A DNA stretch of 62,875 nucleotides, counting the filler, from Stramenopiles sp. TOSAG23-6 (lineage: Eukaryota), in the NCBI GenBank assembly GCA_900128565.1. It is 9 parts of 9 records of this genome, joined end to end, with 100 filler letters (N's around TTAATTAATTAA, not from the genome) between each part and the next. Parts side by side here need not be neighbours in the genome. Positions count along the whole stretch, not along the records: positions 34,244 to 45,545 come from LT636271.1; 8 more parts are not named here. One strand, 5' to 3'. The notes below the pieces were generated by a model. It was not told the origin of the DNA and did not search any database. It worked only from the letters and a program-made list of their open reading frames with translations. The position numbers and the translations under genes are program-made. Below, in pieces: positions 11,328-61,490 of the stretch (positions are counted from its first letter, which is position 1; the number at the start of each line of letters is the position of its first letter).

Positions 11328-11427
11328 NNNNNNNNNNNNNNNNNNNNNNNNNNNNNNNNNNNNNNNNNNNNTTAATTAATTAANNNNNNNNNNNNNNNNN
11401 NNNNNNNNNNNNNNNNNNNNNNNNNNN
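11328..11427. other. Artificial contig linker (also 22741-22840, 34144-34243, 45546-45645, 56930-57029, 58418-58517, 59905-60004, 61391-61490)
   Basis: Identical 100-nt N44-TTAATTAATTAA-N44 (stops in six frames); contigs appear length-sorted (~11.3 kb, then ~1.39 kb). Confidence 0.97.
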
Positions 11428-13293: not shown

Positions 13294-16200
13294 GTCCTTG
13301 TGGCGATGGGGGTGACACCTCAGCGTCACATGGAGAACATATTGGACACCGGCTCCAATACACCGGCGACGTCTACAGCTGAGGGTTTGACAAGTGTTCA
13401 AGCAACTAACGCAGACGTGAGAGGGATCGGCAGTACAGCAAATTGCACATCAGAAGGGGTTCATAGTGGACTGGGATGTACTACATTAGTAATGCCATCG
13501 CTTAGAAGTAATGGAAAAGAAAAGGGAATTTTTCCACCATCGGCATTGATACCTAGTATTAATGTGAATGATAAAGGAAAGCAAGGGGTAGTGCCCTCAA
13601 TAACAATGATGAATGGTAAGATATACGAGCAGAATGCTCGCATTAAGGGAACAAAAGCAAACATNGAATTGCAATTAGAAAAGGATGAAATCGGTGAATG
13701 TAACAAGAATGGAATATGGGTTGTACATGATTTCAGAATGAAAGGACATAAACGTAGTCATATTATTTGTCATGCATCAACTGCAATGATAGTGGAAGAT
13801 CATGAAATGACGCAAATTGAACAAGAACAGGAACGGGAAAAAGGGAATAAGAATTACATACCAGCGATCATGCATGTAGATAAATCCAATTCAATTATGG
13901 ATCGAATCGGTATTGCTCATAGGAAATTGAATCATATGAGTGGATCAGGTATGGCAAAGTTAGCAAGAGTTGGAAAACTTCGAGATTTCGGCATTAGTNA
14001 AGAAGATGTGATACATCTGGACGAATTTGACTGTCTAGATTGTCGCGTTGCCAAGGCTAGACGGAGACCAATGAGAAGGAAAATGAATAAAAACAGTAAA
14101 GAAAAATTAATGAAAAAAGAGCAATATGTAGGTAGAAAAGTGTATTTCGATACAGCTGGACCTTTCCCTCTGAGCATCAGAGGAATGGTCTATAAAGGGG
14201 TAATGAAAGATTACGATACAGGATTGTCATTTGTAAAAGCTACAAAAAGTAAGGCTGAAGTCAGAAATTTCGTAGTGGAAACACAGAAAACTTTCGATGC
14301 TAAATTGAGAATCTTGACAGGATTGAATAAAACTTTTAAGATTATAGAACTTAAAAGCGACGCAGCAAAGGAGTTTATAGGGAAAAATGTGCGACGGGAA
14401 TTCAACATTGGAGGAGCCGTCAGTACAAATACAGGAGGCTATTCTCACTCAAATCATACGGCNGAAAACGCGGTCGGAATAAACATGAGGGACACCAACG
14501 TCGAACTGACAGCTGGTGGGGCACCAGGGAATTTCTGGTGTCTGTGTGCAGANTATGTCGATCTAAAAAGGCGATACATTCCAACTAAGGATAAATNGGG
14601 TAATGAGTACAGGACGGCGATTGAGAGATGCGGCGGCCCTACTACAGATAAGGAAACATGGGAAAAATTACATCCATTTTTTGCACCTACAATCGTTATA
14701 AAAAGGGGTAGTGATAAAAAGGATGTAGGATCAAAAGTCGGAGCAAATGCAGATGAAAGTGCCTTTTGTGGTTACGGCGAAAGTTTCGATGAAGTAATAG
14801 TATACAACTTCCGCAGCTTCATTCTTCAAAGGAGGAGTTGGCAGGATTGTCGAGTCATCAAAAATAAACAATTCCAGATNCAATGGAAAGCAAAAGTCCA
14901 ACATTTATATGCCGTTGGTATNTTAGGTGAAGCTCGAATTGTAAATGGATTACATCATGAAGGTGACGAATTATTTTCACCAGACGATGTAATAGAGAAA
15001 CGGGAAAATGAAAAAAGATTTGTGGAGGCAACAATCCTAAATAAAATGTATATGTTGCCACTACGAACCGAAGCAAAACCGAAAGCTATTAAAATAGAAC
15101 AAGCGAATTTTGACAACTTTTGGTATGAAATTAGGGTAGAGGATACATCTTTAAGTCCGTTNTTAGATGGTCATGTAAANGTAAAGTTCGATGATAAAAT
15201 CGAACGNACAATNAAGCTCCCGTCAGATTTTGACGAAGATTCTCGGACGTTCTTGTTCAAACCAAAAGAAAGTCAATGGTTTCGAACAGCAGAATTAATA
15301 GAAATATCTGAATTGGAGGAGAAATCTAAATCGGAGGAGCNAAGTAAAATAAATGGAAATGTTNTATCCGATTCTTCCTCATTGGAGGAGAAGGATTATA
15401 TGGAAAATGAAAAAGAATCGAAAATAGAATCGAAAATAGAAGATTCAAAAATAGAAGAATCAAAAGTAAAAGATAAAGGTAGTAGTCCGAAAGTATTGCG
15501 AAGAAGTCCAAGATTTCAAGTAATGATGGCTGAAGTAAGTACAGCCGGTAAAATGGAAACGAGATTACAAATGAATTATACTCANAATATAATCTATGAA
15601 TCAACGCCAGAAATTCATCTTAGAAAAAGCGATGTGTTAAAGCCACCAGGTGTATATGAACTCTTTACCAACTGCACAAATAATGTAACGTCAGTAGCTA
15701 AGAGCACTCGTACCAAAGTAGCAATTGCACTCCGAGCATCAAAAGATGAAATAAAANCAGCAACGAATCGTAGAGCAGCAATATATACTGCATTCAGGAC
15801 GCTGGAGAAAATAAATGTGAGTAANAATTCAATGAAAANTATAAAACAAATGATAGAAAGTGAGCTAGACGCTTCAATTGATCAAAATGACCATTTGGAC
15901 GCTAGTCACGCATTACAGATAAGCAACAGTTCAGTTATAATAAATCCAAAAGATGAGAAACAAGTAATGTTGGGTAGTCTTTTATTCGAAGGAGGAGCAA
16001 TAACTGCAATGTCAAATGAAGGTGTTTTTATACAAGACACCGAGATAATGGAAAATGATAGGAAATATAAAAACGAAATGTTAGAATCTTCATCAGATGA
16101 AGAAGAGGATCAAGATGCCGATGTAATAAACGGTATACATAGAGATTTAACGGTAAGAAGCAAAGTATTTGCAGAAACTCATCGAGCTAAATTAGGACCT

Positions 16201-18159
16201 GTGCGCGAAATGCCAGATCCACCGGAAAATAAAAAGCAATANAAGAGGTTAATACCTATATTTAGAAAAATGTTTGGTCTAGCGCAAGCAGACGAAATCT
16301 GTTCACTAATAAGAACAGGGGCAATNGAAATTGATCTATTAATGAANCTNATAGAGAGATACAAAGGGAACTACAAGAAAATGACAAGTAAAATTGTAAT
16401 GAAGATAAAATCGAATATAAACGGACAGTTAGATAAATGTAAGGCAAGATTGGTCGCGAGAGGATTCGCAATGATTAAAGGAATCGATTATACCTTTAGT
16501 TTTGCACCAGTAGCCAAAACTCTAACAATATTATTGCTATTGGCGAGGTTCGCACGAGAACGAGTCANAGCATTTGAAAAGNGTATAAAATGTATATGGA
16601 AAATGCGAACGGGAGACGTAAAAACAGCTTTCCTGAAAGGGAAACTGGAAAAGTTAATGGAAATCATCCTAACACTACCTCATGGGTTGGATTATGATGC
16701 ATTTAAAGCAACGCTAAAATTAGCAGGGTTATGGGAAAAAGAATGGGACGATGAATCAGCTGGGCCATTGGCGATCAGACTGAGAAAATCATTATACGGG
16801 TTAGCTAACGCAGCATATCGATGGAATCGAGCGTTTGGGAAAGCAATTGCTGTAGCAGGATGGGTACCCACGAAAGTGGATCCCGCCACATATGTTTTTG
16901 ACGAGTTACGCGAATGTAATACAAAAGATTGTAGGCGAATAAAAGATAAAGGAAATGGAAATGAAATTATGGATGAATTGGAAATGGAAACTGAAGTATG
17001 GTCATGCGGCTGTAAAAGATTAAGAGGGTTTATGCCTAGTCATGTCGACGATTTTAAAATATTGTATAACGACGACGAGGTAATGGAGAGACTCGAAAGA
17101 GTACTCGAGAACAAATGGAGCGCTAAGGAGATTACATGGACTGACTGTTCAGAGTCCTTTCTGTTTGTTGGTTTAGAGATAGTTATGCGAAAAGACGGTA
17201 CAATTTATATTGGAATGGAATCTAAAATGAAAGATATAGTATATGAATACGAAAATAAAGATTTGCACAAAATCGATTGGTTAAAAGGATGTTTTCTACC
17301 AGATGGAAAATTGAAGCCGCACGAGTTACCTTTACCGTCAGATTTTGATAATGGAAAGTTTGGGAAAGACGAAGAAGCTTTTGAAGCACCGTTTAATTAT
17401 AGAGCACTGATGGGAAAATTAATATTTCCGATCTGCATGTGTAGGCCGGATCTTGCGTATTCTGGAAATGCGATTGGTAGTAAAATGAATGATCCAGGTA
17501 AAAAGGATTATATAGCTTTGTTGCACGTAGCAGGGTATCTTAAGAAACACGGCGAAAAGGGATTAGTATATGGTAGAAAGTTTAATATAATTCAACGTTT
17601 AAACGTAGACGGAAGGATTGTAGAGAAATTATTGTTAGATCCAGATGCACCTTTACAGATTTTTGTAGATGCAGCTTTTTGTGGAGACGCGAAGGGAAGA
17701 TCAGTATCGGGAACAATAATTGCAAGTTATGGAAGCATAATACACTGGAAAAGTCAACGACAAGGTAGCGTTGCATTAAGTACAGGTCACAGTGAATTAA
17801 ATGCTATAATAACTGGCGCGCAAACAGGTATATGGTTGAGAAATCTTCATATCGATTTTGATTGGAATGGCGGGAAGCCGTTGCCACCGTCAGATCTATA
17901 TGAAGACAATANTTCATGCAAAGCACAATGCGAGCATGATACAAATTTCAANGCGACAAGACACGTNACAACTAAGGTTCATTGGATGCGNGAGCACGTG
18001 AACGATCATACTTTTGATATATGGAGTTGTAGTACAGGGTTGATGATCGCGGATATTGGGACAAAATATTTGGCAAGGNTAAAGTTTCATGGATTTGTCA
18101 AGTATATGATGGGAAATCGGAAAATCAGGGAAATTAGATTTGCGTTATCTGAGATGTAA
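13294..18159 (+). CDS. Copia Pol polyprotein (protease, integrase, RT, RNase H)
   Basis: ILDTGS; HRKLNH...CLDC; FDTAGP, LKSDAAKEF; KCKARLVARGF, DVKTAFL, LRKSLYGL, HVDD; FVDAAF, YEDN, MIADIGTK. Confidence 0.93.
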   Translation, partial: VLVAMGVTPQRHMENILDTGSNTPATSTAEGLTSVQATNADVRGIGSTANCTSEGVHSGLGCTTLVMPSLRSNGKEKGIFPPSALIPSINVNDKGKQGVVPSITMMNGKIYEQNARIKGTKANXELQLEKDEIGECNKNGIWVVHDFRMKGHKRSHIICHASTAMIVEDHEMTQIEQEQEREKGNKNYIPAIMHVDKSNSIMDRIGIAHRKLNHMSGSGMAKLARVGKLRDFGISXEDVIHLDEFDCLDCRVAKARRRPMRRKMNKNSKEKLMKKEQYVGRKVYFDTAGPFPLSIRGMVYKGVMKDYDTGLSFVKATKSKAEVRNFVVETQKTFDAKLRILTGLNKTFKIIELKSDAAKEFIGKNVRREFNIGGAVSTNTGGYSHSNHTXENAVGINMRDTNVELTAGGAPGNFWCLCAXYVDLKRRYIPTKDKXGNEYRTAIERCGGPTTDKETWEKLHPFFAPTIVIKRGSDKKDVGSKVGANADESAFCGYGESFDEVIVYNFRSFILQRRSWQDCRVIKNKQFQXQWKAKVQHLYAVGXLGEARIVNGLHHEGDELFSPDDVIEKRENEKRFVEATILNKMYMLPLRTEAKPKAIKIEQANFDNFWYEIRVEDTSLSPXLDGHVXVKFDDKIEXTXKLPSDFDEDSRTFLFKPKESQWFRTAELIEISELEEKSKSEEXSKINGNVXSDSSSLEEKDYMENEKESKIESKIEDSKIEESKVKDKGSSPKVLRRSPRFQVMMAEVSTAGKMETRLQMNYTXNIIYESTPEIHLRKSDVLKPPGVYELFTNCTNNVTSVAKSTRTKVAIALRASKDEIKXATNRRAAIYTAFRTLEKINVSXNSMKXIKQMIESELDASIDQNDHLDASHALQISNSSVIINPKDEKQVMLGSLLFEGGAITAMSNEGVFIQDTEIMENDRKYKNEMLESSSDEEEDQDADVINGIHRDLTVRSKVFAETHRAKLGPVREMPDPPENKKQXKRLIPIFRKMFGLAQADEICSLIRTGAXEIDLLMXXIERYKGNYKKMTSKIVMKIKSNINGQLDKCKARLVARGFAMIKGIDYTFSFAPVAKTLTILLLLARFARERVXAFEKXIKCIWKMRTGDVKTAFLKGKLEKLMEIILTLPHGLDYDAFKATLKLAGLWEKEWDDESAGPLAIRLRKSLYGLANAAYRWNRAFGKAIAVAGWVPTKVDPATYVFDELRECNTKDCRRIKDKGNGNEIMDELEMETEVWSCGCKRLRGFMPSHVDDFKILYNDDEVMERLERVLENKWSAKEITWTDCSESFLFVGLEIVMRKDGTIYIGMESKMKDIVYEYENKDLHKIDWLKGCFLPDGKLKPHELPLPSDFDNGKFGKDEEAFEAPFNYRALMGKLIFPICMCRPDLAYSGNAIGSKMNDPGKKDYIALLHVAGYLKKHGEKGLVYGRKFNIIQRLNVDGRIVEKLLLDPDAPLQIFVDAAFCGDAKGRSVSGTIIASYGSIIHWKSQRQGSVALSTGHSELNAIITGAQTGIWLRNLHIDFDWNGGKPLPPSDLYEDNXSCKAQCEHDTNFXATRHXTTKVHWMXEHVNDHTFDIWSCSTGLMIADIGTKYLARXKFHGFVKYMMGNRKIREIRFALSEM

Positions 18160-22740: not shown

Positions 22741-22840
22741 NNNNNNNNNNNNNNNNNNNNNNNNNNNNNNNNNNNNNNNNNNNNTTAATTAATTAANNNN
22801 NNNNNNNNNNNNNNNNNNNNNNNNNNNNNNNNNNNNNNNN

Positions 22841-30503: not shown

Positions 30504-33416
30504 CATCTCATGAAGGTTTACTCTAGGTATCGTTCTGGCAAAGTTCACGTAACAATGAAAGATAATTCTGATGATAAAAAATATGTGTATGAGGGGGCTC
30601 TTTCTGAAGATACTTTTCGTTTTATTGAGGCTACAGATCTTCGAACTCCTGAAGCAATGTATCCTTTATTTTTTTTCAAATTCGATTTTTTTTCGTATAA
30701 AATTTTGTACCTAACGATTTTTTTTTTGAAATATTTTTTCATCATACATGTCATATTTCAGGGGAATGCAGCCAAATATTTGTGATCGTGCAATGAGATT
30801 ACGAGCAACACGTTGTCTAGAAAATATAGTGAATGGACTGTGTTTTGTAGATAAAGGCCAAGAACGGATAGTATCTGACAATTCTAGTGGACATATNNNN
30901 NNNNNNNNNNNNNNNNAAATGTGACACCGTATAATCAAACATCCAAGTTCTTACGTACTAATCAGATACAATCACTGAAACAGCAGAGCAATATACACTT
31001 AACTCTGGCAACTGGTTTAAATATCGATAATCTTGCGAGAAAGCGAGATAATCCCAATGTTCCAAAACAACAGCGCATATCAAAGATAAAATCACCTACA
31101 ATGATTTGTCTGAATAAATTTATGTTGAATCCAAGTAATACCCTGTGTACTATTCTTGGCCAATGCAACGGGAAAAGATTAATCTTCAATGTAACAAATA
31201 ATCAATCTGATGAAAAATATAAAATTGCATTAGATATCCAGCAAAAGAGCAATCATCCAAATTTGAAGCTAACTAAACGACAGCAAAGAAATCTACTCAA
31301 AAGTGTTGCTTTGCGTCTTAGACTTGCACATTCATCAACATCAGATTTAGGAGAAACAGCCGAGCAAATAGATCATAGTGAAAATATACTCAAGAAACAT
31401 TATAAACTTTATATAGTTAATGACAGTGGTGATTCAATAATAAAGAAGGAAGCGAAAAAAAAGAAAAACGAAAAACGGATTTGTAAACCAAAACAGAATA
31501 TAGTAGAAAAAAAAGAGAAACAAATGAAAATAAATAGAAATGTTGAACAAAATCTACTAACAGGAAGTGAATTGAATCACACAAAAAAAACAAATCATTA
31601 TAAGTCACCAGATGACAAATCTCTAAACATTTCAAAAACAAAACATAGTAAGTCAACAAGAAAAACAAAATCACAGAAAAACAGTAAATTTAGAATTGAA
31701 GGGGTGTCTACATCTACAATAAATAGAGTACCGAATATTGCCAAGTATCCGAAAGCAGCGAAGCAAGTGAAAAAGAAAGAAAAGACTACCGAGAAAGAAA
31801 TAGTGATCAAAACGACCCGAAAAAAAGTAGCACGTTCTCCAAAATCCTGTCGCTCAATAAAATCTTCAATAAAACCTTCTGCAAATACTCATAAAAATAG
31901 CCCAACAAAGAAGAACGAAGCTAAAGAAAATAACTCTTCAGTGTTATTTAAAACCATGAAAAAACGCCGAGTACATAAACAAATCACATTCAAAGAAAAG
32001 TATGCATCTAGACAAAAGAAATATTTTAAGTCTGCAACAACTATTCAATGTTTATTTCGTATTGTGAGAGCTACTAAATGTATTCAATCTCGTCGACGGC
32101 AAGTGGCTGCTTGTACTATTCAAAACAAATATCGCCAATATATTGCCATTGTCAAGACTCAACAAAAACGAAAACAAAAGCAAAAGTCAGCACAAATAAT
32201 ACAAAGAATCTTCCGTGGTCATCAAATGCGTACTCTATTGCAAAAACAACGAGTAAGTAGTATTTTAATTCAATCAATATTCCGAAGAATCATTTGTTGT
32301 AGAAAACTCCTTAATATTAGAAAACGACAACGACGACTTGCTGCAGCTATTAAGTTGCAGCAAAGATATCGCAGTCATATGATTATAGCGATACCAGCAG
32401 CGATTTATTTACAAAAGGTAATTAGAGGATGGCATACTCGTAATATAAAAATTCCACAACAAAATAGAGAATTAAAGGCATCTTTGAATATACAAAGAGT
32501 ATGGCAAGGATTTCAAGGAAGAGTACGGTGGTGCATGAGACGCAGAAAAGTGAGAGCATCAATCGTCATTCAGGCATTTGCACGTCGACATCTAGCTAAT
32601 AAAAAGCTCCGTTCGATGCGTCGATGTAAAAATGCAGCCTACACATTACAAAGAAGTATTTCGCTATATATATTCATTATTAATCGATGTAAAGCGGCCA
32701 AGGAAATACAAGAATTTACTCGAAGGATTTCGCATATGGTTGAAGCAAAGAAAACAGTGAAACTATTGCGCGAGAACAAATATGCTTGTGTCATTCAACG
32801 TATTGAACGAGGCCGACAAAGCCGCCAAACAGTAATATTGATGAAAACCCAACTTGCGGCGCGTTTAATTCAAAATTGCTGGAGACAGAAGATATCATTT
32901 GATGTTGTCAACTATCGGCGTAAATCTCGAGCATCTACACGAATCTCCAAAATAGTTCGCAGTCGATTGTCAAGAAAGCGTGCACTTCATTTATTGAAAG
33001 TTAAATATGCATCTCTAGTTCAAAGATTATACCGAGGATATCATACACGGAAGATAGTCCGATATTTGCATAAGTCACTGTGGTCTCAACGTGGACATGC
33101 TAGAGGAAAATTAGCATTTGAATTCGAAGAACCTCTCTCTATTGGTGATATGATCATTCTGGCAGATACGGAGGACATTATGCGATTGCCATTGACGCGC
33201 TGGATGAAAATATTTGGACAAAATGAAGAGTTTGCAAAACATACCAGATGCATGTATTCCTCTTGGGGTGGAGCAGCCGCATTAGTAGATTCAACAATTG
33301 ATTCTCACGATGGATCCATTAAACTTTCTGGATTTTTTGATCTCAATACAGGACTTCCAACAATAATGGCCGGTGGTGCTTGGTGGCCACATGAATTATT
33401 ATATTTTGCAAGATAA
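30504..33416 (+). CDS. Multi-IQ-motif (calmodulin-binding) protein, 5' end uncertain, spans gap 30897-30916
   Basis: 831-aa ORF with many IQxxxRGxxxR-type motifs; upstream exons 30504-30658 and 30750-30896 open. Confidence 0.75.
30659..30749 (+). other. Non-canonical intron (GT-AT) with GTATCCTTT donor
   Basis: AT|GTATCCTTT...GTACCTAAC...CATCATACAT|G; restores open frame to gap. Confidence 0.8.
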
Positions 33417-34143: not shown

Positions 34144-34243
34144 NNNNNNNNNNNNNNNNNNNNNNNNNNNNNNNNNNNNNNNNNNNNTTAATTAATTAAN
34201 NNNNNNNNNNNNNNNNNNNNNNNNNNNNNNNNNNNNNNNNNNN

Positions 34244-34298
34244 AGGTACAAAATTTCGTATGAAAAAAAAATCGAATTTGAAAAAAAATAAAACATAC
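34244..34298 (-). other. Family intron, truncated by contig end
   Basis: AT|GTATGTTTT...GTACCT. Confidence 0.8.
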
Positions 34299-36926
34299 AT
34301 GAATCAAACGATCTGATCGACCTTCCATTACACCATGTAACAATGCAACAATAAGTCCTAATAAATCAGCCCATGATTGTGTAAATCTATATGATTTCAT
34401 TACCTTTATAGCGTAATGAATGATTCGATTACAACAATCTAAAACTGGTGATGAACAAGCTATGTACATTTGATTCATACTACATGAACCTTGAACACAT
34501 TCTACCATTAAATCAAAACATGAAGTAATTATTGGTAGTAATTTACTATCTAAAAATGGACTTTTTCCTAATTGACGTACTGCACTATTCAAATATTTTC
34601 CAATGTGTAAAAATATGTTGATATTTACTTGGTTATTATTTTGTTGTATCATTAATTCCTGATTAGGACGGTAGTGACCTTCACACAATAAACGAATATA
34701 CTCTAATAATCCACAAATTGTTTCAACATTATCATCTTGTTCTTCTATTATTTTTTCATTTTTTACATCACAAATTGATACATCAACAAGAGGGGTAGTA
34801 CTTTGTACATTAGAAATTATTTCGGTACTTAATTTTGTATCTAAAGAATTTCTAATTGCTTGAGTACTATTACCCTCCTCTTTAGTATTGTTTTTAACCT
34901 CCTCTTTAACATTTTGTAAACCACCTGGTGATTCCTCTTTAGCATTGTTTTTAACCTCCTCTTCAACATATTGTAAACCACCTGGTGATTCATGCAACAA
35001 AATTTCAAACCCTTTAAAAAATGATTCTGTATTTCCATTTGTTATTATCTTATATACTTCCAGTTGAGCTTCAGAATTCCCCCCACCAACAAAACGATCT
35101 GTTAAAATACAAATTCCAACTTTTGTAGTTATTTGTAGTACATCATGAGATATTCCAGGAGCAATTAATTTCATAATAAGATTCATTACTCCTGCAGCAA
35201 TAGCCTGGTCAATAATTACATCTCTATCTGCATTAGCTTCAGTCCCACAACAATCTAGAAAAGATTGTAAAAGATTCAAAACTCCTAAAATAATAATTTT
35301 ACTATTATTATTCTCTATACTTTTACTATACTCAATTGTACCATCGTTATCGTCATTTATTAAATAGCATGCATGTTTGATCATTTTATGTAAAATATTA
35401 CCAATGTTAATATCAGAAGAAGAATCATCAAAAGTACGTAAAATATTGACAAGATCCACAAATTCATTCTTTATATCCTCTTTTGTACCATTTTTTTGTA
35501 CTTGAATCATTTTTTGAAAAGCTTGTCGTGTTGGTATCATTTTCACGCTTTTATATGCTTGTTCTTGTAATAATTTTTCTTTAGCTACACTTTTTTCTAT
35601 TTCAGCTTCTTCTTTTATATATTGATTTTGTTCATGAATGATTTTTTGTTGCTCTTTCATTCTTGAATAAGGAGTTTCAAATTTTGATTTTTCATCAATA
35701 TTATTATTAGTAGTAATATCAACATTATTACTATTAGTAGTAGTATTACTATCATCAACAGTAGTATCATTATTTGTTGTATCAAATCCATTAATTTTAC
35801 TTATCGCAAATTTACACATTCTAACTTTATTGTGGAAGGATAAGACAATTGGATGAATCGAATCTTTTTGAGTAGAGACAAGTAATAATTGAGAAACACT
35901 TTGAGCAATAGATAGTTTTGTTTTAGAATTAAGTTCATCATTTTCAAAATGTTGTCCATATCGTTGAAATATTCCTGTAATACATGGTAATACCTGATGA
36001 TACACTAACCATATTAATTTTTCATCATTGATTTCATTTACTTTTTCAATACGATCAAGATGACTCAGGCGAATAGATTTTTGTATATTATTGTGCCCAG
36101 TGTCAATTAAAATGGAACAAATTTTTTCGTGAAACCCCAACGTACAAAGTTGTGTCAAAACAGACGCTAATAGTTGTATCATTGTTATGGTACCCGGTAA
36201 AGTCGCAAGTTCCATACACGGTGTTGTTGCTTCTATATAAACTTGGTATAGAAAATATAGTAAAGATTCCTTCACATTCCAAATTGTTCTTTCATCATTA
36301 ATATGATAAAGTAAATTTGAAATTGGAAAACATGATTTACATTTTGCTTCTGTAATTTTAAAATTACCCTGACAACAATTTGATAGTAAGAGTAATAACT
36401 TTGTATGATATTGTAAAATTGGATGATCTCTCATACAATTTACATTCTTTGTCATTAATTGTCTAGTTATTTTATACGGATTTAATTTTGTATCTACAAA
36501 TAATTTCATTGTTTTATCAATCCATTTTGATTTTGTTAATACATTCAAAATTTGAATATTTTGAGTTGTACTATTTTGTAAAGCTATTTCATTGAGAAAT
36601 TGTAAATATTCTGTATTTGGAGCATCATCATCATCATCTGTATCTATAATATTTTCTATCATACAATGTATAGTCTTGGAACTAACCTGTTCACATAAAT
36701 CTACATTATTTTTCACTATTTCACATAAAAGATCATTTGTATACGGAATTGTATCTATACGCTGACACATTTCATCAATAAAATTATCAAAATGAAATAA
36801 TGCTTTCTGCCCTTGAGGGAAATTTGTACACCAAACTCTCAAAAAATCATGAATTGATCCTAACATTTCAAATAATACAGAATCTTTTGCATCAATAGAT
36901 GATTGACTATTCATTTGTTTATTATT

Positions 36927-36977
<51 letters not shown>

Positions 36978-39900
36978 TCCAGGTAAATGTATTGTGACAG
37001 AATATGTAAACATAAAATTTGTTAAGTACAGAATTTTCATAGTAAAAAAAGAATAAATAAATTTGAAATGAATGTTAGGCTTAGGGTTAACAAACATCTA
37101 TATTAAACATTTCAGGAATAATTGTTAATACGTCTAAATTATAAATAAGCAATTGCATTTCATAATTTGGTTCAATTGTATCATTATCAATAATAGTACA
37201 ATAATTCTTCATTTCATTCATCCAATTTTGCAATTCTTTTAATTTATTCACAACAATTGTTAAATCATGTATCGTGAAAAAAAAATTGAAAAAAAAAATC
37301 AGTTAGGTACAAAATGTTCTACCAAAAAAAAAAATTAAACTTCAGGATAGGGTTAGGGTTAACCTACATCACCGATGCCCCACACTTCATAACATTCAAT
37401 TGAACATAGAAAATATCCTAAAATTGACTGTATATGAAAATATGCTTCATGATGTTTTGAATCCAATAGTAAATGAATTGAAGAGCATATATTCAATAAA
37501 TTATAACGTTTTTGATTTTGATGTAATAATAAAAGTAATGATTCTGTAGTCAAATTATCATTTTCATACATTAATAAAGTAGTTAATATTGTAGAAAAAT
37601 TACTATTTCCAGATGATGACGTCATTTTTGATAAGCTTAAAATTTGTGTATTTTTTGAATGTTTTTCTGAAAATAGATGTTTACACATATTCACAGTTTT
37701 ATCTATTATTGTAGAATTCCCTGAAAATAATTGATGGAGATATAGATTATGAAAAAATATTTCAAAAAAATCCAAAAACATTTGTTAGGTACAAAATTTC
37801 GTATGAAAAAAAATGTAGACAAAAAAATTGAAATGAAAACGTACATTCCACTGGACTTTTCATTGTACCAAGAATACTTTGAAAATCAACTAATACGTGA
37901 GATATTTGATACTCAATTTCAATATCAGCCAAAATACGTAAAAGTTGTATTTGTACACATTTACATTCCATATGTATTGTGAAAAAAAAAAGAAAAAAAA
38001 AAAGTACAAAAATTTGTTAGGTATAAAATTTCGTATACACAAATAATAAATTTTGAAATTTGAAATTTGAAATGATGAAAACAAACATCATCAATTGTTT
38101 CTTCACTCTGATGATATCTCTTGTCACGAACCTGTTTCGGTATAATGACTTTTATTTTACTTTTTTCTTGGCGTAATAATTGCTTTGCTAATCGAGCAGC
38201 ACGAAATAAACGTAATAATCGTACTGTATTGTGAAAAATATTTAAAAAAAAAAGTTAAATTTGTTAGGTACAAAATTTCGTACGAAAAAACACGATTTGT
38301 TTTGAAAAAAATGAAATTGAAAACGTACATAATCGTAACATCCTAAATGTTTTAAATAATGAGCCTAATGATTTGATTGAAGAGACAGCAACACCAAGCC
38401 AATCTACAAATGTAACAATAAAGTCAGTTACACATAGCCAATCAAGGAAATATCGATTGCATCCAATAGCCCAAAGACGTCCAATGACATGTTTTTTTTG
38501 AAAATATTTTTTTTTTTTTGAGTAAAATTTCTGTGTTAGGTATAAAATTTTGTATAAAAAATGAAAAATTAATAAATTCATGATGTGAAAATGTACATCC
38601 AACGTAAACAGAGCAAGAAAGAAATAATCTAATAAGTCTAATGTTGAATTATTTGATTCTTGTAAACCAATTAAACCTGTAATAACAGAAATAAAAGTAG
38701 CTCCAATAATAAATATCATGTACTTTGGAAATATATTTCAGAAAAAAAAACCTTAAATTTGTTAGGTACAAAATTTACTATAAAAAAAACAATTCGAATT
38801 TGAAAAAAAGTAAAACATACATATATATTTTACCATCCATAATATTTTCAACATATTCAGCAAGAGATCGTTCAACAGGTTTGTCTGTATCAACTAAAAG
38901 CTTTCTATATTCACGAACATCATCTTGAGTAAAGTCTGTATCATGAATGATTTGCTTTGAAAAACACGAAAAACATGAAAAAATATTTTTGTTGTTTTGT
39001 TTTTGGGTCGTTTCTTCTTTTTCTATTTTTGAATTGAAATGTCCAATACTTTGAATTAATGGAATTGCAACATTTTGTACTTGTTCAACAGATGAATAAT
39101 AACCATACTGTAATAAATGATGTAAACATTTCGCATATGCAGCTGTTAATAAATGATTATCGTTTCCCGGTTCACTATATTCACGTGTACTCTCTAACCA
39201 CATTTCTATTGATCCTTGTAATATTGCAAATTTATTTGAATGTGTAGTATTTGGTACACCAATCGTATTGGCTTGAATAGGTACATACGTTTCTACATTG
39301 TCTGTATTTTTTTTATTTTCTGTATTTTTTTTATTTTCTGTATTTTTTTTATTTTCTATATTTTCTATATTTGTAACAAATGGCCTACTAATATTTGGTA
39401 TAGGAATTGTCTTTTGTGGATCAACATCAAGCCATAATGAATCAATTAATGAAGCAAATGCGGCTCGTAATTCAATCGTTATTCCAGTGTCAGATGCAGC
39501 TAGTATACATAATTCATATGAATATTCATCTCGTAAATTGTAAATTCCTAAATAATTCCTATTTAAACATAATGTTGAAAATAATGTAATTTGTGCAAGA
39601 TAAAAATCATAAATTTTCTTTTTTTTCTCATATATACTCTTTGCTTCTTGTGCCAATTTTATTTCTTTTGCTTTAAAACCTAATTTTGAATGTTTTGAAT
39701 CTTTTAAAGTATTTTTGGCCTCATCACCATCATCATTATCATCATTAAAATCTTCATGTACACATTCACATATTTCGTGTATTTTTACCCATGTTTTTTT
39801 AAATAAAGCATTTGGTGTGGAAGTCATGTATTATGAAAAATATTTTTTTTTTTAATTTAAAAAAAAATGTTAGGTACAAAATTTCGTATGAAAAAAACAA

Positions 39901-42800
39901 TTTGAAAATTAATGATAAAAACGTACATATCTTTAGTGTACCAAGAAACACACAAACCTGGTACACTCATTCCACCTGAACCAATTGCTGATTCACCCAT
40001 TACATCACCACCATTATCTTCTACATATCTTTGTGTACTTTTAGAATTAAATTGAACACTTTGATTTCTATCACCCATCATTCTTGTCTTTATTAATAAT
40101 TCTTGATTTCGTGTTTTAAAAAGTTCTAAATTGACTTTATCTTGATTATCATCTACAGCTTCATTTTGGCACATACATAATACACACAAAAACTTTATAT
40201 AATCTGGATGTTGTCCAAATTTATGTAATAATTTAACAAATAATTTAATATGTTTTGTTGTAATACAAGTATTTAATAAAACTTCATTACCTTCTACTAA
40301 TTCAGTTAAACAAAATGTTGAACCGATTTGTAATGGAATTTGAACAATCAAAGAATCAATATATTTTGTTGCATACATGAAATGTAGAAAAATATGTTTG
40401 AAAGTTTGAAATTTGTTAGGTACAAAATTTCGTATGAAATCATTGAAATCATAAGGAATATCTACAGGAAAAAAAATTGTTCAATAGATAATTTTGAAAA
40501 AAATAAATTTAAAATTAAAATTAAAATAATGAAAACGTACATTTGATTAGGACGATGATCATCAATTACCATTACTATCATATAATATAAACATTCGCAA
40601 GTATCACATAACATATGCCAAAGTGTAGTATCATTATTCAAGACTTTAATACCTCGTACTAAAGTTTGTACCAAATTCATTGAATATTCTAAAACTTGAC
40701 ATTCTTTTAATAATGTATTTTGGAAAAATATTTCAAAAAAAAATCGTTAGGTACAAAATTTACTATAAAAAATAAATTCGAAATTGAAAAAAAATAAAAC
40801 ATACATTGTTGACGGTCTGTTACAATAAAATCATTCGATATTTTTTTCAATTCTTTGACTTTTTTTTTAAATGGCCAATCTGTTAACATATGGTAATATT
40901 TTTGATTAATTTGTTTAGGATCTATGCAAAATATTCTCAAATATAAACAAATTTCAATAATTTTTACTAATTTGTTTTGATCCATTTTTTCATATAAAAT
41001 TCTAATATTTTTTCTCTTTTTTTCTGATTTCGTTTTTAAAATATTTTCTTCTTCATTTTGTGTTTGAATTATTGTATTATTAGTATTTTCTTCATCTCTT
41101 TTTGTTTCAAATATTGTATTTGAATTATTATAGTGTTGATCATTGTTGAAGTAATCACTAAGGATACAACCAATTTTCTTCAACATTGTAACTAATGATA
41201 TACCTTCATACATTGTAAAAAAATATTTAAAGAATAAAATCGTTAGGTACAAAACTTTCAAAAAAAAAAAAAAAAGAATTTTAAATGCATGATAAAAGCG
41301 TACATATATTGTGATTAATACATCATTTGTATAAGGAATAGAAATGATCATTGCATTATCTTCTTCCCATGATGAAAAGTTTACAACTGAAGCATTTTCA
41401 CCACCATATTCTTCTGCATCTGCACCATCATTCAGCCATATAATACGTTCTGATGATGCATTTTTTACATTATTTTTTGTATCATTTTTTGTTTCATTTT
41501 TTGTTTCATTTTTTACATCATTTTTTATATCATCTGCAATATGAATAAAAATACCAGAATTATTCTTGATACAAACACTTGCAGCACTCTTTACCGATGG
41601 AATTAAATTGAATAATGTCTTTGGATTATTTCGTGTATTTGTTACAATCATACAATCATCAGGATTTTCATTATCATCTTCCAATAAATTAGCTACAATG
41701 GCGCCAGGTGAACCTCGACATAAATATAAATTTGAAATCAAATGACGAAATCGGAATGTATGCTTATATTTTGCTAGACCACCACAAGAAACGTCACTTG
41801 CTTCAATAATCCATAAAAAGTTTGAATTTTCTTTCATATCTATTTCACCCGATTCATCGATTTCACGCGCAGAAAATAATACTGCTAATTCTGTTTCATT
41901 TTCAGATTTTGTTTCATTTTCAGATTTTGTTTCATTTTCAGATTTTGTTTCAACATTTTGACTAATTGTATCAATATCAGATACAGATCCTACATTCTTC
42001 ACAGATAGAAAACAATTACTCTGTGGGTGCTTTAAACGAACAACTGAACCTATAGGTATAAAAGATCGTTTAGGAACACTTTTTCGTAACCCTAACCCTA
42101 AATCTCGACTTGAAGCAAATTTTGAAAATGTCCAACATGTACGAGAATAATTCGTAACTACAGCTGCATTAATTTCACGTAAAGGACCACTCAAATGAAT
42201 ATGTTCCGATTTTCTTTCTAGACCATACAAAATGACAAGATCGTTATATTCAACAACGTCACCCAAAGTTCGTGTTTTTGATTTGGGGTTGACTGTAAAG
42301 CAAGCCATGCCTGTTGGTAGCGATGTAACTTCAATGCAAAAACATTCTGATTGAACTTCAGCGACTTTATTGGGACAAATTGTGACATATTTTTGTGAAA
42401 GAATATTCTGAAGTTGTATAGCATCTCCGTATTTTACTGAACGACCCAACCGTGATTGAATTAAACGTTCATTGGATATTTTTTCTTTTCGCGCAGCGTC
42501 TTTATAGTGTTTTATTGTACGTTCTGAAGAAGTCTTGGAAAGAAGAGCACGATCATACTCGATAGTAGATGTATATTGAAGTTGAGGTACAACACGAAAT
42601 AAGCATTCACGAAATTTTATGGGAAGACTACCATCCGGCTGAAGAACAGCCAAGTGACAAGTTGTATTAGCAAAACCTTCAACACATAAAACTCCCTCCA
42701 CATTGTGGGTTTGGTTAAACGTCTCTTTAGTATAAAGATACACAGTATCGCCAAAAGAAAGCACATCTGGTGGTTTCGATGCATCTGTGGTAGACACCAT
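34244..42800 (-). CDS. Inositol 1,4,5-trisphosphate receptor-like Ca2+ channel with inserted voltage-sensor domain, 3'-partial, 12 family introns
   Basis: LSFGDTVYL, FRECLFRVVP, VKYGDAIQLQN (Ins145_P3_rec); FRFRHLISNLYL (MIR); RQQLLKECQVL, NQMYAT, LCMCQNEAVDDNQ (RIH); IRLLCEGHYRPNQ, LMVECVQGSCSMNQ (RIH-associated). Confidence 0.88.
36927..36977. repeat. (GAT)n microsatellite encoding poly-Asp
   Basis: Long tcatcatca run on + strand. Confidence 0.9.
36987..37095 (-). other. Non-canonical intron (GT-AT) containing telomere-like repeat
   Basis: GTTTGTTAACCCTAAGCCTAAC...GTACTTAAC...CACAATACAT. Confidence 0.8.
37267..37367 (-). other. Non-canonical intron (GT-AT) containing telomeric repeat
   Basis: GTAGGTTAACCCTAACCCTA...GTACCTAAC...CACGATACAT. 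Confidence 0.8.
37742..37844 (-). other. Non-canonical intron (GT-AT)
   Basis: GTACGT...CATAATCTAT; frame restored. Confidence 0.78.
37972..38086 (-). other. Non-canonical intron (GT-AT)
   Basis: GTTTGTTTTC...ATACCTAAC...CACAATACAT. Confidence 0.82.
38224..38328 (-). other. Family intron with canonical end (GT-AG)
   Basis: ...CACAATACAG; restores S4 periodicity RMLRLLRLLRLFR. Confidence 0.88.
38489..38596 (-). other. Non-canonical intron (GT-AT), in-frame
   Basis: Restores S2 helix FTLD|VIGRLWAIG. Confidence 0.85.
38718..38820 (-). other. Non-canonical intron (GT-AT)
   Basis: GTATGT...CCAAAGTACAT; joins KIYM-IFIIGATF. Confidence 0.85.
39826..39926 (-). other. Non-canonical intron (GT-AT)
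   Basis: GTACGT...GTACCTAAC...CATAATACAT; joins two ORFs in frame. Confidence 0.85.
40377..40540 (-). other. Non-canonical intron (GT-AT), long variant
   Basis: Restores NQ-M-YATKYI. Confidence 0.82.
40713..40804 (-). other. Non-canonical intron (GT-AT)
   Basis: Restores RQQ-LLKECQVLE (IP3R RQKLxRE-like motif). Confidence 0.88.
41208..41303 (-). other. Family intron (GT-AT), in-frame, no stop
   Basis: GTACGCTTT...GTACCTAAC...ACAATGTAT. Confidence 0.75.
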
Positions 42801-42960
42801 TATTAATTTGAACGATATTGAGTTGAAAATAACATTAGTTTTGGTTTTTACAAGCACTAATTGTAAAGGTAAAATCAAATTGTGTCTCTCTCTTTTTCGT
42901 TTCTCTTTTTTTTTTGTTTCTACAGTTTCATTTTCGGTATTTCGTGTAGTCAAAAATTTA

Positions 42961-43232
42961 CTATATTTCGTGTACCATAGCTGAAAATCTTAATTCACCG
43001 TCAAAATTTCTAAATATATTTCGTGTACCAGCGTAATTCACCGTCAAAATTTCCAAGTGTATTTCGTGTATATCGTAATTCACCGTCAAAATTTCTAAGT
43101 ATATATATCGTAATTCACCGTCAAAATTTTTAAGTATATATTTCGTGTATGTAGCGTAATTCACCGTCAAATTCATAAGTATATTTCGTAAATTTCGTGT
43201 AGAAGGATATAAATCTGAATTCACCGTCAAAT
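42961..43232. repeat. Degenerate tandem repeat with core AATTCACCGTCAAA (6 copies)
   Basis: Cores near 42992, 43035, 43077, 43112, 43158, 43218, interspersed with TTTCGTGTA. Confidence 0.85.
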
Positions 43233-43740
43233 CAAATCAACTTTGTCAAAATCTCAATCAAGGAAATATAAGGAGAGCACGTAGAACCCTAACCCTAGAA
43301 ACAACTTCCTTGTTTCAAATCTCGTTTTGGTACCAAAAAAATTGAGATGTAATTTCACAAGTATCGTGTACAAATGAAGGTTATAAGAAGATTATATGTT
43401 ATAATTGGATCATTTTGAGCTATTTATTTTGAAAAAATATTAATATCAGTGTAATTAAATTTTCACTTGTGTTTGTTTGTAGAAAACGCCAAAATACTAC
43501 GATTTAGGGTTAGGGTTTTCGCGGTACATCAAACAATTTGACAAATCTAATCGGACATCATCAATCTAAAAAAATTAATATCAATATGATATCAATAAGA
43601 TTCAATACAATTGAATACTCAAAGAACTGTGTTAACAAACACATTGAATGTATTTTAGTCATAGAAACGAGATTATAAGATTCAAATAAGACGTATACAT
43701 AGGGAATCATTTATTAGAGAGACGTTTTTGAAATACGATA

Positions 43741-45545
43741 ATGGTCTCGACGTCACCAACTTTGTATAGTAATAGTACTTCAGCAAATAGTTCTACAGGT
43801 ACTTTTGCAACTTTAGATCATATCCGTCGTTTTTCTAAACTCAAGGGTCGATTAAACACGCATGCGTTTGTTTCATTGACAAAATCTAAACGACATATTC
43901 CTACACATCCCAATAAACAACATACATCAAGTGTATTGAACATTCGGCCTCGTAAGTATCAGCCTCTAGGTGCTCGTAGAAAACGAACTGATTCCTCTCC
44001 CCGTTTTCAGCAACAAAACAAATATTCTAATAAAGAATATCATATTCCCCCAAGTTATTTACCTTTTGAGAAGTCGAATCAGTTTCGTAATATACATGAA
44101 TTAAATCTTACTTCTGGTTTTGTGTACTCAAATAAAAGACAAAAGACAACTGGCAAAATTTTCTTACCTACAAAGGATTTTCGAAATTCTACAAGTCAAC
44201 GAAATAAGCGACAATATAATTCAAATGTATTACCTCTATCAAATAGTATGAATGTTACTTCTAAAAGAAATAGTGGTGGACTGAAATCTGCGTTAAGTAC
44301 AAAAATGTATATGAAAAGAAAAGAAGTCACAAAAAATGTTCGATTTGCACGAATGTTTGTTTTCTTTTTTTTAATTTCGAATTTTTTTTTCGTACGAAAT
44401 TTTGTACCTAACGAATTTTTTTTGAAATATTTTTTCAAAGTAAATCAACTGTTATGATTCAAGTTCAAGGTGTGTCTACGACAACGTTACAAAACGCATC
44501 AAGAATTACAAAGTCAATCAATGGTGCTCCTCGTTTAGTTACACGACCAAAACTCAATATGTCAATATCATCACCAAAGAAACACACGAAATATATCAGA
44601 CCAAAAGCTTGGGAAAAACATAATACAGGTATTGAAATAGTAACACGTGGCAATAATGATGATGATGATTTTAAAACATCTGCTGAAGCAAGGTATACAT
44701 TTTCTGCGTCCAAGCAAGCGCAACAATATAGTCATCGAAGCCAATACAATTCTTTTATAAATGACATGCGGAATTCGAGAATCGCAGCAGAAAGTGAAAA
44801 AGAACGAAAACGTAAAGGCTTGAAAAAATGTGAAGTCACGGTAGAAAATATGGGAACTGATTTAGGAATGACTCGACTTTCAGGTTTACCTTCCCCTCGA
44901 CTAAATCTCCCTACGACAGTCGATGAATTATGGCTTGAACGTCCATTGGATAATTCTGGACATCCAAAACGTGGCGGCCGCGGATCAATGAAGAGAGAAC
45001 ATGTACGTTTTTTTTTAAATTTTTTTTTAAATTTTTTTTTAAAATTTTTTTTTATAGAGAATTTTGTACCTAACGAATTTTTTTTTATTTTTTTTACAAA
45101 AAAAAAAAAAAAATATTTTTCACAATAAATGACCCAGATCGTTTGATTAAACGCAAATTAAAAGTACGACCAACAACTCAAGCTGAAATGCGTGATTGTT
45201 CAGCAGCTCTTGAACCAGAAGATATAAAAGCGATTTCGTGCGGACCTAAACTAATTAATTTTGAACGTGTTTGCATTCGAAGTGAAAATGTTAAATGTTT
45301 TTCAGTATATAATGACTCTTCGGCAAATATACTCGTTGCCTTAAAATTAGATGATTGTCCAGAATTACGTTTAACTACGCCAATGAGTCAAGTTATTCCT
45401 TCTGGAGGTACTGCCGGTTTTGACATTACCTTAATGTATGTTTTATTTTTTTTTTTAACAAAAACATCGATTTTTTTTTCATACGAAATTTTGTACCTAA
45501 CAAATTTAAGTTTTTTTTTTTCAAATATTTTTCCAAAATACATGT
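43741..45545 (+). CDS. CFAP47-like (ASH/Ig-fold ciliary protein) gene fragment, 3'-partial; introns ~44355-44440, 45003-45130, 45436-45543
   Basis: PTTQAEMRDCSAAL...ISCGPKLINFERVCIRS...ELRLTTPMSQVIP resembles CFAP47 from memory; first exon shows no such similarity. Confidence 0.55.
44355..44440 (+). other. Family intron, probably GT-AG (acceptor uncertain)
   Basis: AG at 44440 gives the in-frame join; AT end at 44445 does not. Confidence 0.6.
45003..45130 (+). other. Non-canonical intron (GT-AT)
   Basis: ...CACAATAAAT|GAC CCA GAT in frame. Confidence 0.8.
45436..45543 (+). other. Family intron (GT-AT) at contig end
   Basis: GTATGTTTT...CCAAAATACAT. Confidence 0.75.
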
Positions 45546-45701
45546 NNNNNNNNNNNNNNNNNNNNNNNNNNNNNNNNNNNNNNNNNNNNTTAATTAATTA
45601 ANNNNNNNNNNNNNNNNNNNNNNNNNNNNNNNNNNNNNNNNNNNNATTTTGTACCTAACAAATTTTAGTTTTTTTTTTTGAAATATTTTTCCAAAATACA
45701 C

Positions 45702-56929: not shown

Positions 56930-57030
56930 NNNNNNNNNNNNNNNNNNNNNNNNNNNNNNNNNNNNNNNNNNNNTTAATTAATTAANNNNNNNNNNNNNNN
57001 NNNNNNNNNNNNNNNNNNNNNNNNNNNNNT

Positions 57031-58296: not shown

Positions 58297-58517
58297 TGAA
58301 ATTAATAAAGAAGTTTTTGCGTGTCTTATCAGTTAATATACAATACTGAGAAATGCTTCGAAAGTTTTCGGAAAACACAGAGTTTGTTTTATATTCGTGT
58401 CTTCTTCTTTCTTTTTCNNNNNNNNNNNNNNNNNNNNNNNNNNNNNNNNNNNNNNNNNNNNTTAATTAATTAANNNNNNNNNNNNNNNNNNNNNNNNNNN
58501 NNNNNNNNNNNNNNNNN

Positions 58518-59904: not shown

Positions 59905-60211
59905 NNNNNNNNNNNNNNNNNNNNNNNNNNNNNNNNNNNNNNNNNNNNTTAATTAATTAANNNNNNNNNNNNNNNNNNNNNNNNNNNNNNNNNNNNNNNN
60001 NNNNATTTTTCTTTGCATGTGTGGATCTTGAGACTTTCTCTCTGATTCAGCAACTTCACTTAATATATGGCCGACATCTTTGCTAATGTCATCATTATTT
60101 TGCGTCATTTCATTCTTCATTTTAGACAAAGTAGTCCCGCCATAACCATGCATCTCTTTCAAATCAACCACAAAATCACGCTCTAGTTCTCGCAACTCTT
60201 CTCGAAGTCTT

Positions 60212-60820: not shown

Positions 60821-61490
60821 GGCAACTAATAGTGACGGTTTGATAACTACCTGGTAGTATAATGTATACCAATTGGTTTTCTATAAGATAATGGTATAAC
60901 AATATATAGGTTCAAAGAATACCAAATGTGTATTAATGCAAGATTTATTACACACACAAAAATCGTATCTTAGAAAAAGTTGATATCACTGGATCGAGAG
61001 AATACTGGTACTACGTAATGTCGTGAAATTATAACCGACGAACGAAATCATTTTTTGAGAGATTTTTGAGATTTTTGAGATTCATTGTTCTAGTAAAATT
61101 TAAAAAATCTGACAATTTCAAAAACAATAAATAATGTTGTACCATTTTTTCATACTTGCAAAACATCTCGAGACAAAATGGTACTGAGTCGTAGTATAAT
61201 AATAGAATATGACACCCAACAATACTAATAAGCTTTATATTACTGTTCTGTTATTAGGCAATTTTTTTTAAAAAATTTTCCAGTATTTTAAATTGATGTT
61301 TAATCTTTTTAATTAGAGAGTAAATTTATGTAGATAATTGTTATTATTAGTTTTATATTATATACTATGAAACTGGATTTGTATAACATTNNNNNNNNNN
61401 NNNNNNNNNNNNNNNNNNNNNNNNNNNNNNNNNNTTAATTAATTAANNNNNNNNNNNNNNNNNNNNNNNNNNNNNNNNNNNNNNNNNNNN

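Follow-up and report, generated by a model that had tools for sequence, protein, structure and literature searches.

The window analyzed here is a stretch of 62,875 bases from Stramenopiles sp. TOSAG23-6 in which several unrelated contigs are joined, and it does not represent one locus. One of these contigs carries, on its minus strand (34244..42800), a gene whose predicted product is a genuine member of the IP3R family with a fully charged S1-S4 voltage-sensor module in its cytosolic region. As far as the contig reaches, the gene is predicted to comprise 12 exons and 11 complete introns, and its 3' end, including the pore, lies beyond the contig. Removal of the 11 introns downstream of the ATG at 42800 leaves a frame of 2435 codons to 34299 that contains no stop, on account of which we dropped the possibility of a pseudogene. 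Pfam families follow one another on one strand of this one contig in the order Ins145_P3_rec, MIR, RIH, Ion_trans (S1-S4 part), and RIH_assoc. We regard this architecture, an IP3R backbone with an inserted sensor, as close to certain.

Backbone and sensor module

All five domain families that an earlier note on this DNA had put forward for checking (Ins145_P3_rec, MIR, RYDR_ITPR, Ion_trans, and RIH_assoc) were matched in open reading frames (ORFs) of the exons by HMMER and Pfam. Exon 1 (41304..42800; this and all other coordinates in the gene refer to the minus strand) encodes two β-trefoil domains, with Ins145_P3_rec at ∼42764-42111 (E-value 3.4e-25 on the raw exon ORF) and MIR at ∼41828-41580 (2.7e-7). 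It matches IP3R N-terminal domains in the PDB (E 5e-15). Exon 4 (39927..40376) contributes an ARM1-like RIH domain (RYDR_ITPR, 5.9e-15) and exon 12 (34299..36986) an ARM-repeat region with RIH_assoc (34730-34422, 8.5e-19) and the Ca2+-site pattern CEGH ... ECVQ. The RIH_assoc piece gave no match in the PDB at 1e-5 and weak matches at E up to 1. Pfam did not find a second RIH match in the exon ORFs of the window, which have one; the relatives P0020, P0022, and P0024 have two RIH stretches each. The earlier note had placed IP3R-like sequence on both sides of the sensor, and this is what we observe: exon 5 (38821..39825) encodes an IP3R-like helical region (CLNRNYLGI, LLQYGYYS), a low-complexity tether, and a pre-S1 stretch that is conserved in the family and ends GKIY, and IP3R-like sequence resumes in exon 9 (37845..37971) with MECKCVQIQLLRILADIEIEYQISHVL, where the profile match picks up again at residue 960 of ITPR2.

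A profile of six long family members matches human ITPR2 with an E-value of 4.3e-225, ITPR3 and ITPR1 almost as well, and the best RyR far more weakly (4.4e-73). The match to ITPR2 runs in three stretches (profile 14-736 to ITPR2 10-705, 790-977 to 706-894, and 1216-2521 to 960-2678). About 238 profile positions, made up of the tether, S1-S4, and a linker, stand in place of ITPR2 residues ∼895-959. This insertion site presumably falls in CLD segment 1 or at the CLD/ARM2 border, with the domain boundaries as we take them to be. The order Ins145_P3_rec, MIR, RIH, RIH_assoc is that of animal ITPR1-3, which do not have the ∼238-position insertion, and no SPRY or RyR-repeat families appear in the Pfam tables of the window exon ORFs and seven sensor-bearing relatives. 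Judged by these matches, the backbone is IP3R-type and not RyR-type.

The S1-S4 Ion_trans module occupies residues ∼1176-1283 of the spliced model. Four sensor helices emerge, as the earlier note had proposed, once introns 5 (38718..38820, 103 nt), 6 (38489..38596, 108 nt), and 7 (38224..38328, 105 nt) are removed. S1 (YMIFIIGATFISVITGLIGL) lies where exons 5 and 6 meet, intron 6 interrupts S2, S3 is contained in exon 7, and intron 7 interrupts S4 (KTFRMLRLLRLLRLFRAARLAK). Exon 6 (38597..38717) carries S1 (to 38663) and the first half of S2 (38641-38597), with Asp-1206, Phe-1213, and Asp-1216. Exon 7 (38329..38488) carries the end of S2 (Arg-1220), S3 (38452-38390; Asp-1238 and Asp-1245), and the first half of S4 (38353-38329; Lys-1262, Arg-1265, and Arg-1268). 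Exon 8 (38087..38223) completes S4 (38223-38183; Arg-1271 to Lys-1283) and continues through a 21-residue linker to a conserved RY motif. Both borders of the sensor had been described as lying in exons that also hold IP3R-like or linker sequence; this is so for the N-terminal border in exon 5, whereas the C-terminal exon carries S4 and linker only. Because intron 6 is in frame and free of stops, the unspliced ORF 38267-38737 reads through it; this ORF contains only half of S4. Its match to Ion_trans (E-value 8.1e-6; 25.6 bits, the cut-off being 25) takes in the S1-S4 part alone, at profile positions 8-108 of 241. The three sensor exons sum to 121 + 160 + 137 = 418 nt. As this is not a multiple of 3, skipping them would shift the frame, and cassette-exon skipping of the sensor was dropped as a candidate.

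S4 in the window has eight basic residues in register at every third position, in agreement with the earlier note, and 7-8 are found at every third S4 position in all ten family sequences. The charge-transfer and counter-charge residues of the window copy (Phe-1213, Asp-1216, Arg-1220, Asp-1238, and Asp-1245) fall in columns that are invariant or acidic in the family. The six long proteins show no variation at, among other columns, the Phe and Arg of S2, two Asp in S3, and four Arg in S4. Of the nine sequences with S2 coverage, all have an acidic residue three positions after the S2 Phe and eight have the outer S2 acidic residue. The charge pattern of S2, S3, and S4 equals what we take to be the pattern of working sensors (an aromatic plus an acidic residue in S2, Asp in S3) and is shared with the four-domain Cav and Nav channels. 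The best matches outside the family are such four-domain channels (15 of 20 hits), the named ones being T-type Ca2+ and Na+ channels, and in the PDB the family profile (whole sequence) retrieves Cav3.2, Cav1.3, and another L-type Cav at 5e-26 to 7e-23. An AlphaFold2 model of the fragment P0004, calculated from a 9-row alignment, has helices at the expected places, with predicted local distance difference test (pLDDT) values of 75-90 over the four helices. Foldseek comparison of this model with the PDB returned sensor-bearing proteins only among the 46 matches listed (TPC1, NavAb, Nav1.7, CatSper, Cav, and Ci-VSP).

In contrast to four-domain Cav and Nav channels, the family has a single sensor per chain, located between cytosolic domains and devoid of S5-P-S6. 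We did not find an S5-P-loop-S6 unit after S4, and Ion_trans matches extend no further than profile positions 108-129 of 241. S4 is followed by a hydrophilic linker and helical cytosolic sequence. In the 1150 residues from there to the contig end we detect no hydrophobic span of transmembrane (TM) strength and three weak amphipathic stretches; P0001 has one comparable weak stretch in its own cytosolic part. The earlier statement that no pore loop follows S4 holds, and the predicted S1-S4 is a sensor-only module without its own pore.

Relatives with the same architecture

A full HMMER scan of 1.84 billion protein representatives with the raw sensor ORF (E 0.001 cut-off) returned five proteins, three of 2430-2899 residues with the match in mid-protein and two fragments. 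A word-indexed search with the same ORF among proteins of 276-2000 residues gave no match. According to Pfam, an Ion_trans match confined to profile positions 4-129 stands between RIH and RIH_assoc in P0001, P0002, and P0003. Two more searches yielded P0017, P0020, P0022, and P0024, in which the domain order is the same; P0017 stops short of the RIH_assoc position. The mid-protein Ion_trans match of these seven long relatives (E-values 1.4e-7 to 1.3e-15) extends up to profile position 129 and lies after RIH and, in six of them, before RIH_assoc. Eleven long IP3R-like proteins were scanned in total, and the remaining four (P0027, P0029, P0039, and P0047) have a C-terminal pore match only; as most of the scanned proteins were found using the sensor as bait, 7/11 is not a frequency. 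The relatives come from four source collections (eukprot, jgi, lgn, and ena), and the named hits in our sequence searches were animal RyR, Cav, and Nav only.

The contig breaks off within a 12th intron, at a point where ∼580 residues of the closest relative are still to come, and the pore is accordingly seen in the relatives only; the window copy stops at the equivalent of residue 2265 of the 2848 in P0001. Both P0001 and P0002 have an IP3R-type 6-TM pore, with six C-terminal hydrophobic spans in P0001, and the family consensus keeps the IP3R-type S6 (DTFxxLR) and the zinc-finger pattern CxxC ... H ... HN. All three features are shared with animal ITPR1-3 and indicate that the relatives are whole channels with 4 + 6 spans. 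The selectivity-filter sequence of P0001 and P0002 differs from the GGVGD motif of the animal proteins. The idea of a Ca2+-release channel with a built-in sensor, put forward in the earlier note, is borne out in the window for the IP3R backbone and the S1-S4, whereas its pore part draws on the relatives.

We calculated a quick maximum-likelihood tree from 15 rows and 1992 columns, with the sensor columns excluded. It contains eight sensor-bearing rows, four protist IP3R-like rows that have no sensor, and three RyRs as outgroup; the two fragments and 16 of 19 RyR hits were left out, and there is no animal IP3R row. All eight sensor-bearing rows form one group with two deep subgroups (97 in the Shimodaira-Hasegawa-like approximate likelihood ratio test). 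The nearest rows outside this group, P0027, P0029, and P0039, have the same backbone domains; in contrast to the sensor-bearing proteins, they have no mid-protein sensor, and their sole Ion_trans match is C-terminal and reaches profile position 239-240. On this tree the architecture is common to a deep clade of protist sequences, and the window gene is no singleton. The possibility that other protists share the design had been raised beforehand: it is present in the seven long relatives and uniqueness is gone, yet we found no published description of it (see below).

The same comparisons bear on whether the gene could be a chimera, created by an assembly or gene-model join across repeated intron elements. 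Copies of a single intron family border each of the sensor exons, the contig breaks off within another copy, and the best-matching sequencing run (0.95) is probably the source itself and not independent. Set against this, the domain order recurs in seven long proteins and two fragments from the four collections. The spliced model aligns to P0001 in a single collinear blastp alignment (38.8% identity over 2374 residues) and to P0002 likewise (28% over 2553), and all 11 exon junctions, including the three in the sensor, are gap-free against P0001-P0003. At the intron 7 junction the window has Leu, as do P0001-P0003, which fits the GT-AG reading of this intron. A single protein, P0004 (228 residues from a 934-nt contig), runs from the pre-S1 stretch through S1-S4 and the linker to the RY motif and the helix after it. 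Within the contig a same-strand exact repeat of at least 31 nt was not found, the longest exact match between introns being 30 nt, and the three sensor exons are needed to hold the reading frame. We rule out an assembly artefact because the architecture is the same in seven long relatives and two fragments; a chimera, which the earlier note had also argued against, seems to us almost inconceivable. Sampled words were present at 5-12% in four metatranscriptome and three metagenome runs, and we count this as evidence of nothing.

Among the proteins that have no mid-protein sensor, P0047 (3374 amino acids, a JGI metagenome protein) begins with MCP-like PDC/Cache and GPR158-type extracellular domains and continues with a weak Ins145_P3_rec match, RIH_assoc, and the C-terminal pore. 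It would be a release-channel scaffold bearing an extracellular-type ligand sensor.

A possible route from S4 to the release channel

We propose that the gene product assembles as a tetramer into a Ca2+-release channel of the IP3R family, with a Cav/Nav-type S1-S4 inserted in the peripheral cytosolic region at the place of ITPR2 ∼895-959, and that voltage would bias its opening. We see the chances of this proposal as evenly balanced. The four extra spans would share a membrane with the 6-TM pore domain of the channel: four spans whose two ends are cytosolic in the usual orientation lead us to expect the sensor in the bilayer of the pore. A change in potential across that membrane would move S4, and the cytosolic end of S4 would act, through a short linker of conserved length, on the helical region just before ARM2. 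The distance from the last S4 charge to the conserved (R/K/E)Y motif is 21 residues in 6/10 sequences and 15-19 in the other four, whereas the upstream tether is long, variable, and of low complexity (82-162 residues in the six of eight proteins where it is measurable). The conserved length on the S4 side, compared with the variable tether, suggests a mechanically meaningful connection at the cytosolic end of S4. Channels and Ci-VSP have a mechanical connection at this very end.

Retraction of ARM2 toward the CLD is described, in the part of the source available, as a pre-activation step that is normally driven by IP3 (PMC13433952). As the end of S4 leads next to ARM2 and ARM2 retraction is a priming step, S4 movement may be the priming input. 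That it replaces or supplements IP3 in this role, in a Ca2+-activated release channel, is a suggestion that we place slightly short of even. Voltage would then bias opening in a channel with its Ca2+-activation site kept and most of its IP3-coordinating residues lost. The architecture and its conservation, the sequence features of the sensor, and the condition of both ligand sites are observed; voltage control is inferred here from conservation, and placement in one membrane, movement of S4, and coupling to the gate are proposed.

The ligand sites point in this direction. In the profile alignment, ITPR2 residues Arg-503, Lys-507, Arg-510, Tyr-567, Arg-568, and Lys-569 correspond to Thr, Gln, Lys, His, Arg, and Pro in the window, and the Arg-265 to Arg-269 stretch of the IP3 site falls in an acidic (ETKSEN)n repeat in exon 1. 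We take the IP3-coordinating residues to be, in IP3R1 numbering, Arg-265, Thr-266, Thr-267, Gly-268, Arg-269, Arg-504, Lys-508, Arg-511, Tyr-567, Arg-568, and Lys-569. These residues appear mostly lost, unlike in animal ITPR1-3, and loss of IP3 binding is probable, bearing in mind a weak β-trefoil alignment. Because the canonical residues are mostly unconserved, the name IP3 receptor denotes homology only. The Ca2+-activation site has the opposite fate. It consists of Glu-1882, His-1884, Glu-1946, and Gln-1949 in hIP3R-3, according to the available text of PMC8930994, and the E-x-H and E-x-x-Q pattern of that site is present in the window, a Glu/His/Gln pattern kept as in the animal proteins. 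By hand count on a weak PDB match, the Glu residues of LLCEGH and VECVQGSC align to Glu-3848 and Glu-3922 of RyR2. Up to the contig end, the Ca2+-activation residues in ARM3 are retained, the third ligand (in the juxtamembrane domain) being located beyond it. The clade may consist of directly voltage-gated Ca2+-release channels, in which the IP3 site decayed, the sensor took over priming, and Ca2+ activation was kept; we offer this history tentatively and lean somewhat against it.

Several observations weigh against voltage-biased release. The potential across stores of the endoplasmic reticulum type is generally thought to be small, which leaves no obvious signal for the sensor unless the channel resides in another membrane. 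The pore is absent from the window's own copy as the contig ends, and its identity as a channel would rest on the relatives. The P0004 model is of moderate quality (mean pLDDT 68.3, predicted template modeling score 0.49), its Foldseek comparison gave no match at E 0.001 or better (best 4.0e-3), and phmmer with the raw window sensor ORF found no match in the PDB. The IP3-site residues in the β-trefoil part are read from a weak alignment.

The small potential across store membranes would suit an S1-S4 that serves as anchor or scaffold only, tethering peripheral cytosolic domains or mediating clustering and sensing no voltage. A long, variable, low-complexity upstream tether (82-162 residues) would also suit such a role. 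Gating charges are not needed in an anchor, yet the S4 register, the S2 Phe, Arg, and acidic residue, and the two S3 Asp are kept. They are kept at 18-41% identity to P0004 (alignment A2) and along branches of 0.5-1.5 changes per site, and the linker from S4 to the RY motif has a conserved length. We consider an anchor unlikely, though worth keeping in view.

Counter-current is needed during release, and S1-S4 might itself provide a path, Hv1-like or as a gating pore, that supplies counter-charge while Ca2+ flows. Voltage sensors can conduct when S4 charges are missing, as stated in the accessible part of a review (PMC10651576). In the present family the S4 register is fully charged, save for the last position in 5/10 sequences, and the S1 core has no acidic residue in 9/9 sequences covering S1. 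Hv1 has an Asp in S1. A conducting sensor is, in our estimate, very improbable.

The earlier note had raised anchoring in a second membrane as a possibility, by analogy to CaV1.1 and RyR. In that case the sensor would sit in, for example, the plasma membrane and the pore in the store membrane, with one polypeptide bridging the two as CaV1.1 and RyR1 do together. This analogy and the long flexible tether are all that speak for such a bridge. The S4-side linker spans just 15-21 residues to the RY motif, the number of spans is even with both ends cytosolic, and the spans of one chain are inserted co-translationally into one membrane. We know of no precedent for a chain that spans two membranes, and we regard second-membrane anchoring as extremely improbable and have given it up.

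Voltage-biased release from one polypeptide, our preferred reading, recalls CaV1.1 and RyR in that a voltage sensor drives a release channel of the same superfamily. The muscle sensor is a protein of its own and lies in a different membrane, whereas the sensor described here belongs to the same chain as the IP3R backbone. Voltage sensors coupled to an effector that is not a pore are present in Ci-VSP and in the sperm Na+/H+ exchanger SLC9C1. An oomycete fusion of another kind joins a voltage sensor to a cyclase, as far as the available text of PMC12223298 describes it. All of these resemble the family in having a sensor that lacks its own pore and is directly continuous, at the cytosolic end of S4, with the effector. 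Superposition of the Ci-VSP sensor on the P0004 model gives a root mean square deviation of 2.7 Å over 128 columns, with a weak E-value of 1.2e-2. They differ in that the family effector would be the regulatory assembly of another class of ion channel, and in that the family sensor is internal, with protein on both sides, and not terminal.

IP3R and RyR channels are known to open in response to ligands; in muscle, a distinct protein that senses voltage can open them. To our knowledge, voltage sensors act on few kinds of effector, namely the pores of their own channel superfamily, a proton path, a phosphatase, and a Na+/H+ exchanger. This list would gain a new entry if a release channel had a conserved voltage sensor of its own. 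A full-text literature search, with subscription journals and supplements outside its scope, found no description of an IP3R or RyR homologue with an inserted voltage sensor. In the available portion of a 2023 review whose stated scope is all voltage-sensor protein families, the words IP3, inositol, and ryanodine are absent (PMC10651576). The accessible text of a 2024 survey of Ca2+ channels from diatoms and brown algae refers to IP3Rs and to no voltage sensor on them (PMC11085791), and that of a 2011 survey of parasite channels is silent on an IP3R with a voltage sensor (PMC3194816). An IP3R-family channel with an inserted S1-S4 sensor is apparently undescribed in print. If voltage does bias release, the family would represent excitation-release coupling in one polypeptide, old enough for two deep subclades in marine protists and a protist route from voltage to Ca2+ release unlike any seen in animals. 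It would also be a compact model in which to study the transfer of S4 movement to a large gating assembly in the cytosol.

Introns, repeats, and the remainder of the window

A 19-nt intron core (AAATTTTGTACCTAACAAA on the strand of the gene) has 40 matches in the window at ≤3 mismatches (17 + 23 by strand). Eleven copies lie inside the gene, each marking a short intron of 92-164 nt that begins GTAYGTTTT-like; intron 5 is one of this repeat family. The introns are not of the ordinary GT-AG kind: 10/11 of them, read from GT, end in AT and have AT before them, so that their boundaries can equally be read as AT...AC. Intron 7, inside S4, is the sole intron readable as GT-AG and has a 9-nt direct repeat on its flanks. 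The start of the 12th intron (34244..34298), cut by the contig end, belongs to the same family and begins GTATGTTTT after AT; ≥25 nt at the contig end also occur in the intron cores near 37787 and 39872.

This intron family (41303-36987 and 34298-34244 in the gene) resembles in appearance "introner" elements that stem from transposons, here with ends that are non-canonical. Comparable introns, repeat-like and non-canonical, have been reported, in the parts of the sources available, for some diplonemids (PMC12621601) and for Amoebophrya (PMC7789003). Telomere-like CCCTAA-type units follow directly after the 5' ends of introns 10 (37367-37340, GTTAACCCTAACCCTA) and 11 (37095-37070, GTTAACCCTAAGCCTAAC), both on the minus strand; the other nine introns have none. 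The coding sequence contains in-frame low-complexity repeats of its own (36927-36977, 41888-41952, 41459-41533, 39297-39372, and 34876-34991), including a run of 17 Asp, (ETKSEN)n in the second β-trefoil, (KNxT/VKNE)n, (ENKKNT)n, and a 57-nt duplication in the ARM3-like part.

The contig that bears the gene extends over 34244-45545 (11,302 nt), with a G+C content of 25-28% in this part. A Pfam scan of the ORFs at 42964-45544, which adjoin the gene, gave no matches. Between contigs lie eight spacers (11328-11427, 22741-22840, 34144-34243, 45546-45645, 56930-57029, 58418-58517, 59905-60004, and 61391-61490), each consisting of 44 N, TTAATTAATTAA, and 44 N. Read along the gene, one of them begins at 34243, directly after the contig end. 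As the contigs on the two sides of a spacer are separate, genes located there are not genomic neighbors. Several contigs in the window are of near-equal size (∼11.3 kb, then ∼1.39 kb), as if sorted by size. Within one contig, the part 12127-18079 is interspersed with dozens of isolated N letters, a sign that base calls may be ambiguous in this section of the assembly. Another contig contains, on the plus strand (30917-33416), an 842-residue ORF that, with its translation read by eye, is rich in repeated IQ-like motifs and reminiscent of ASPM-type or myosin-neck-like calmodulin-binding repeats.

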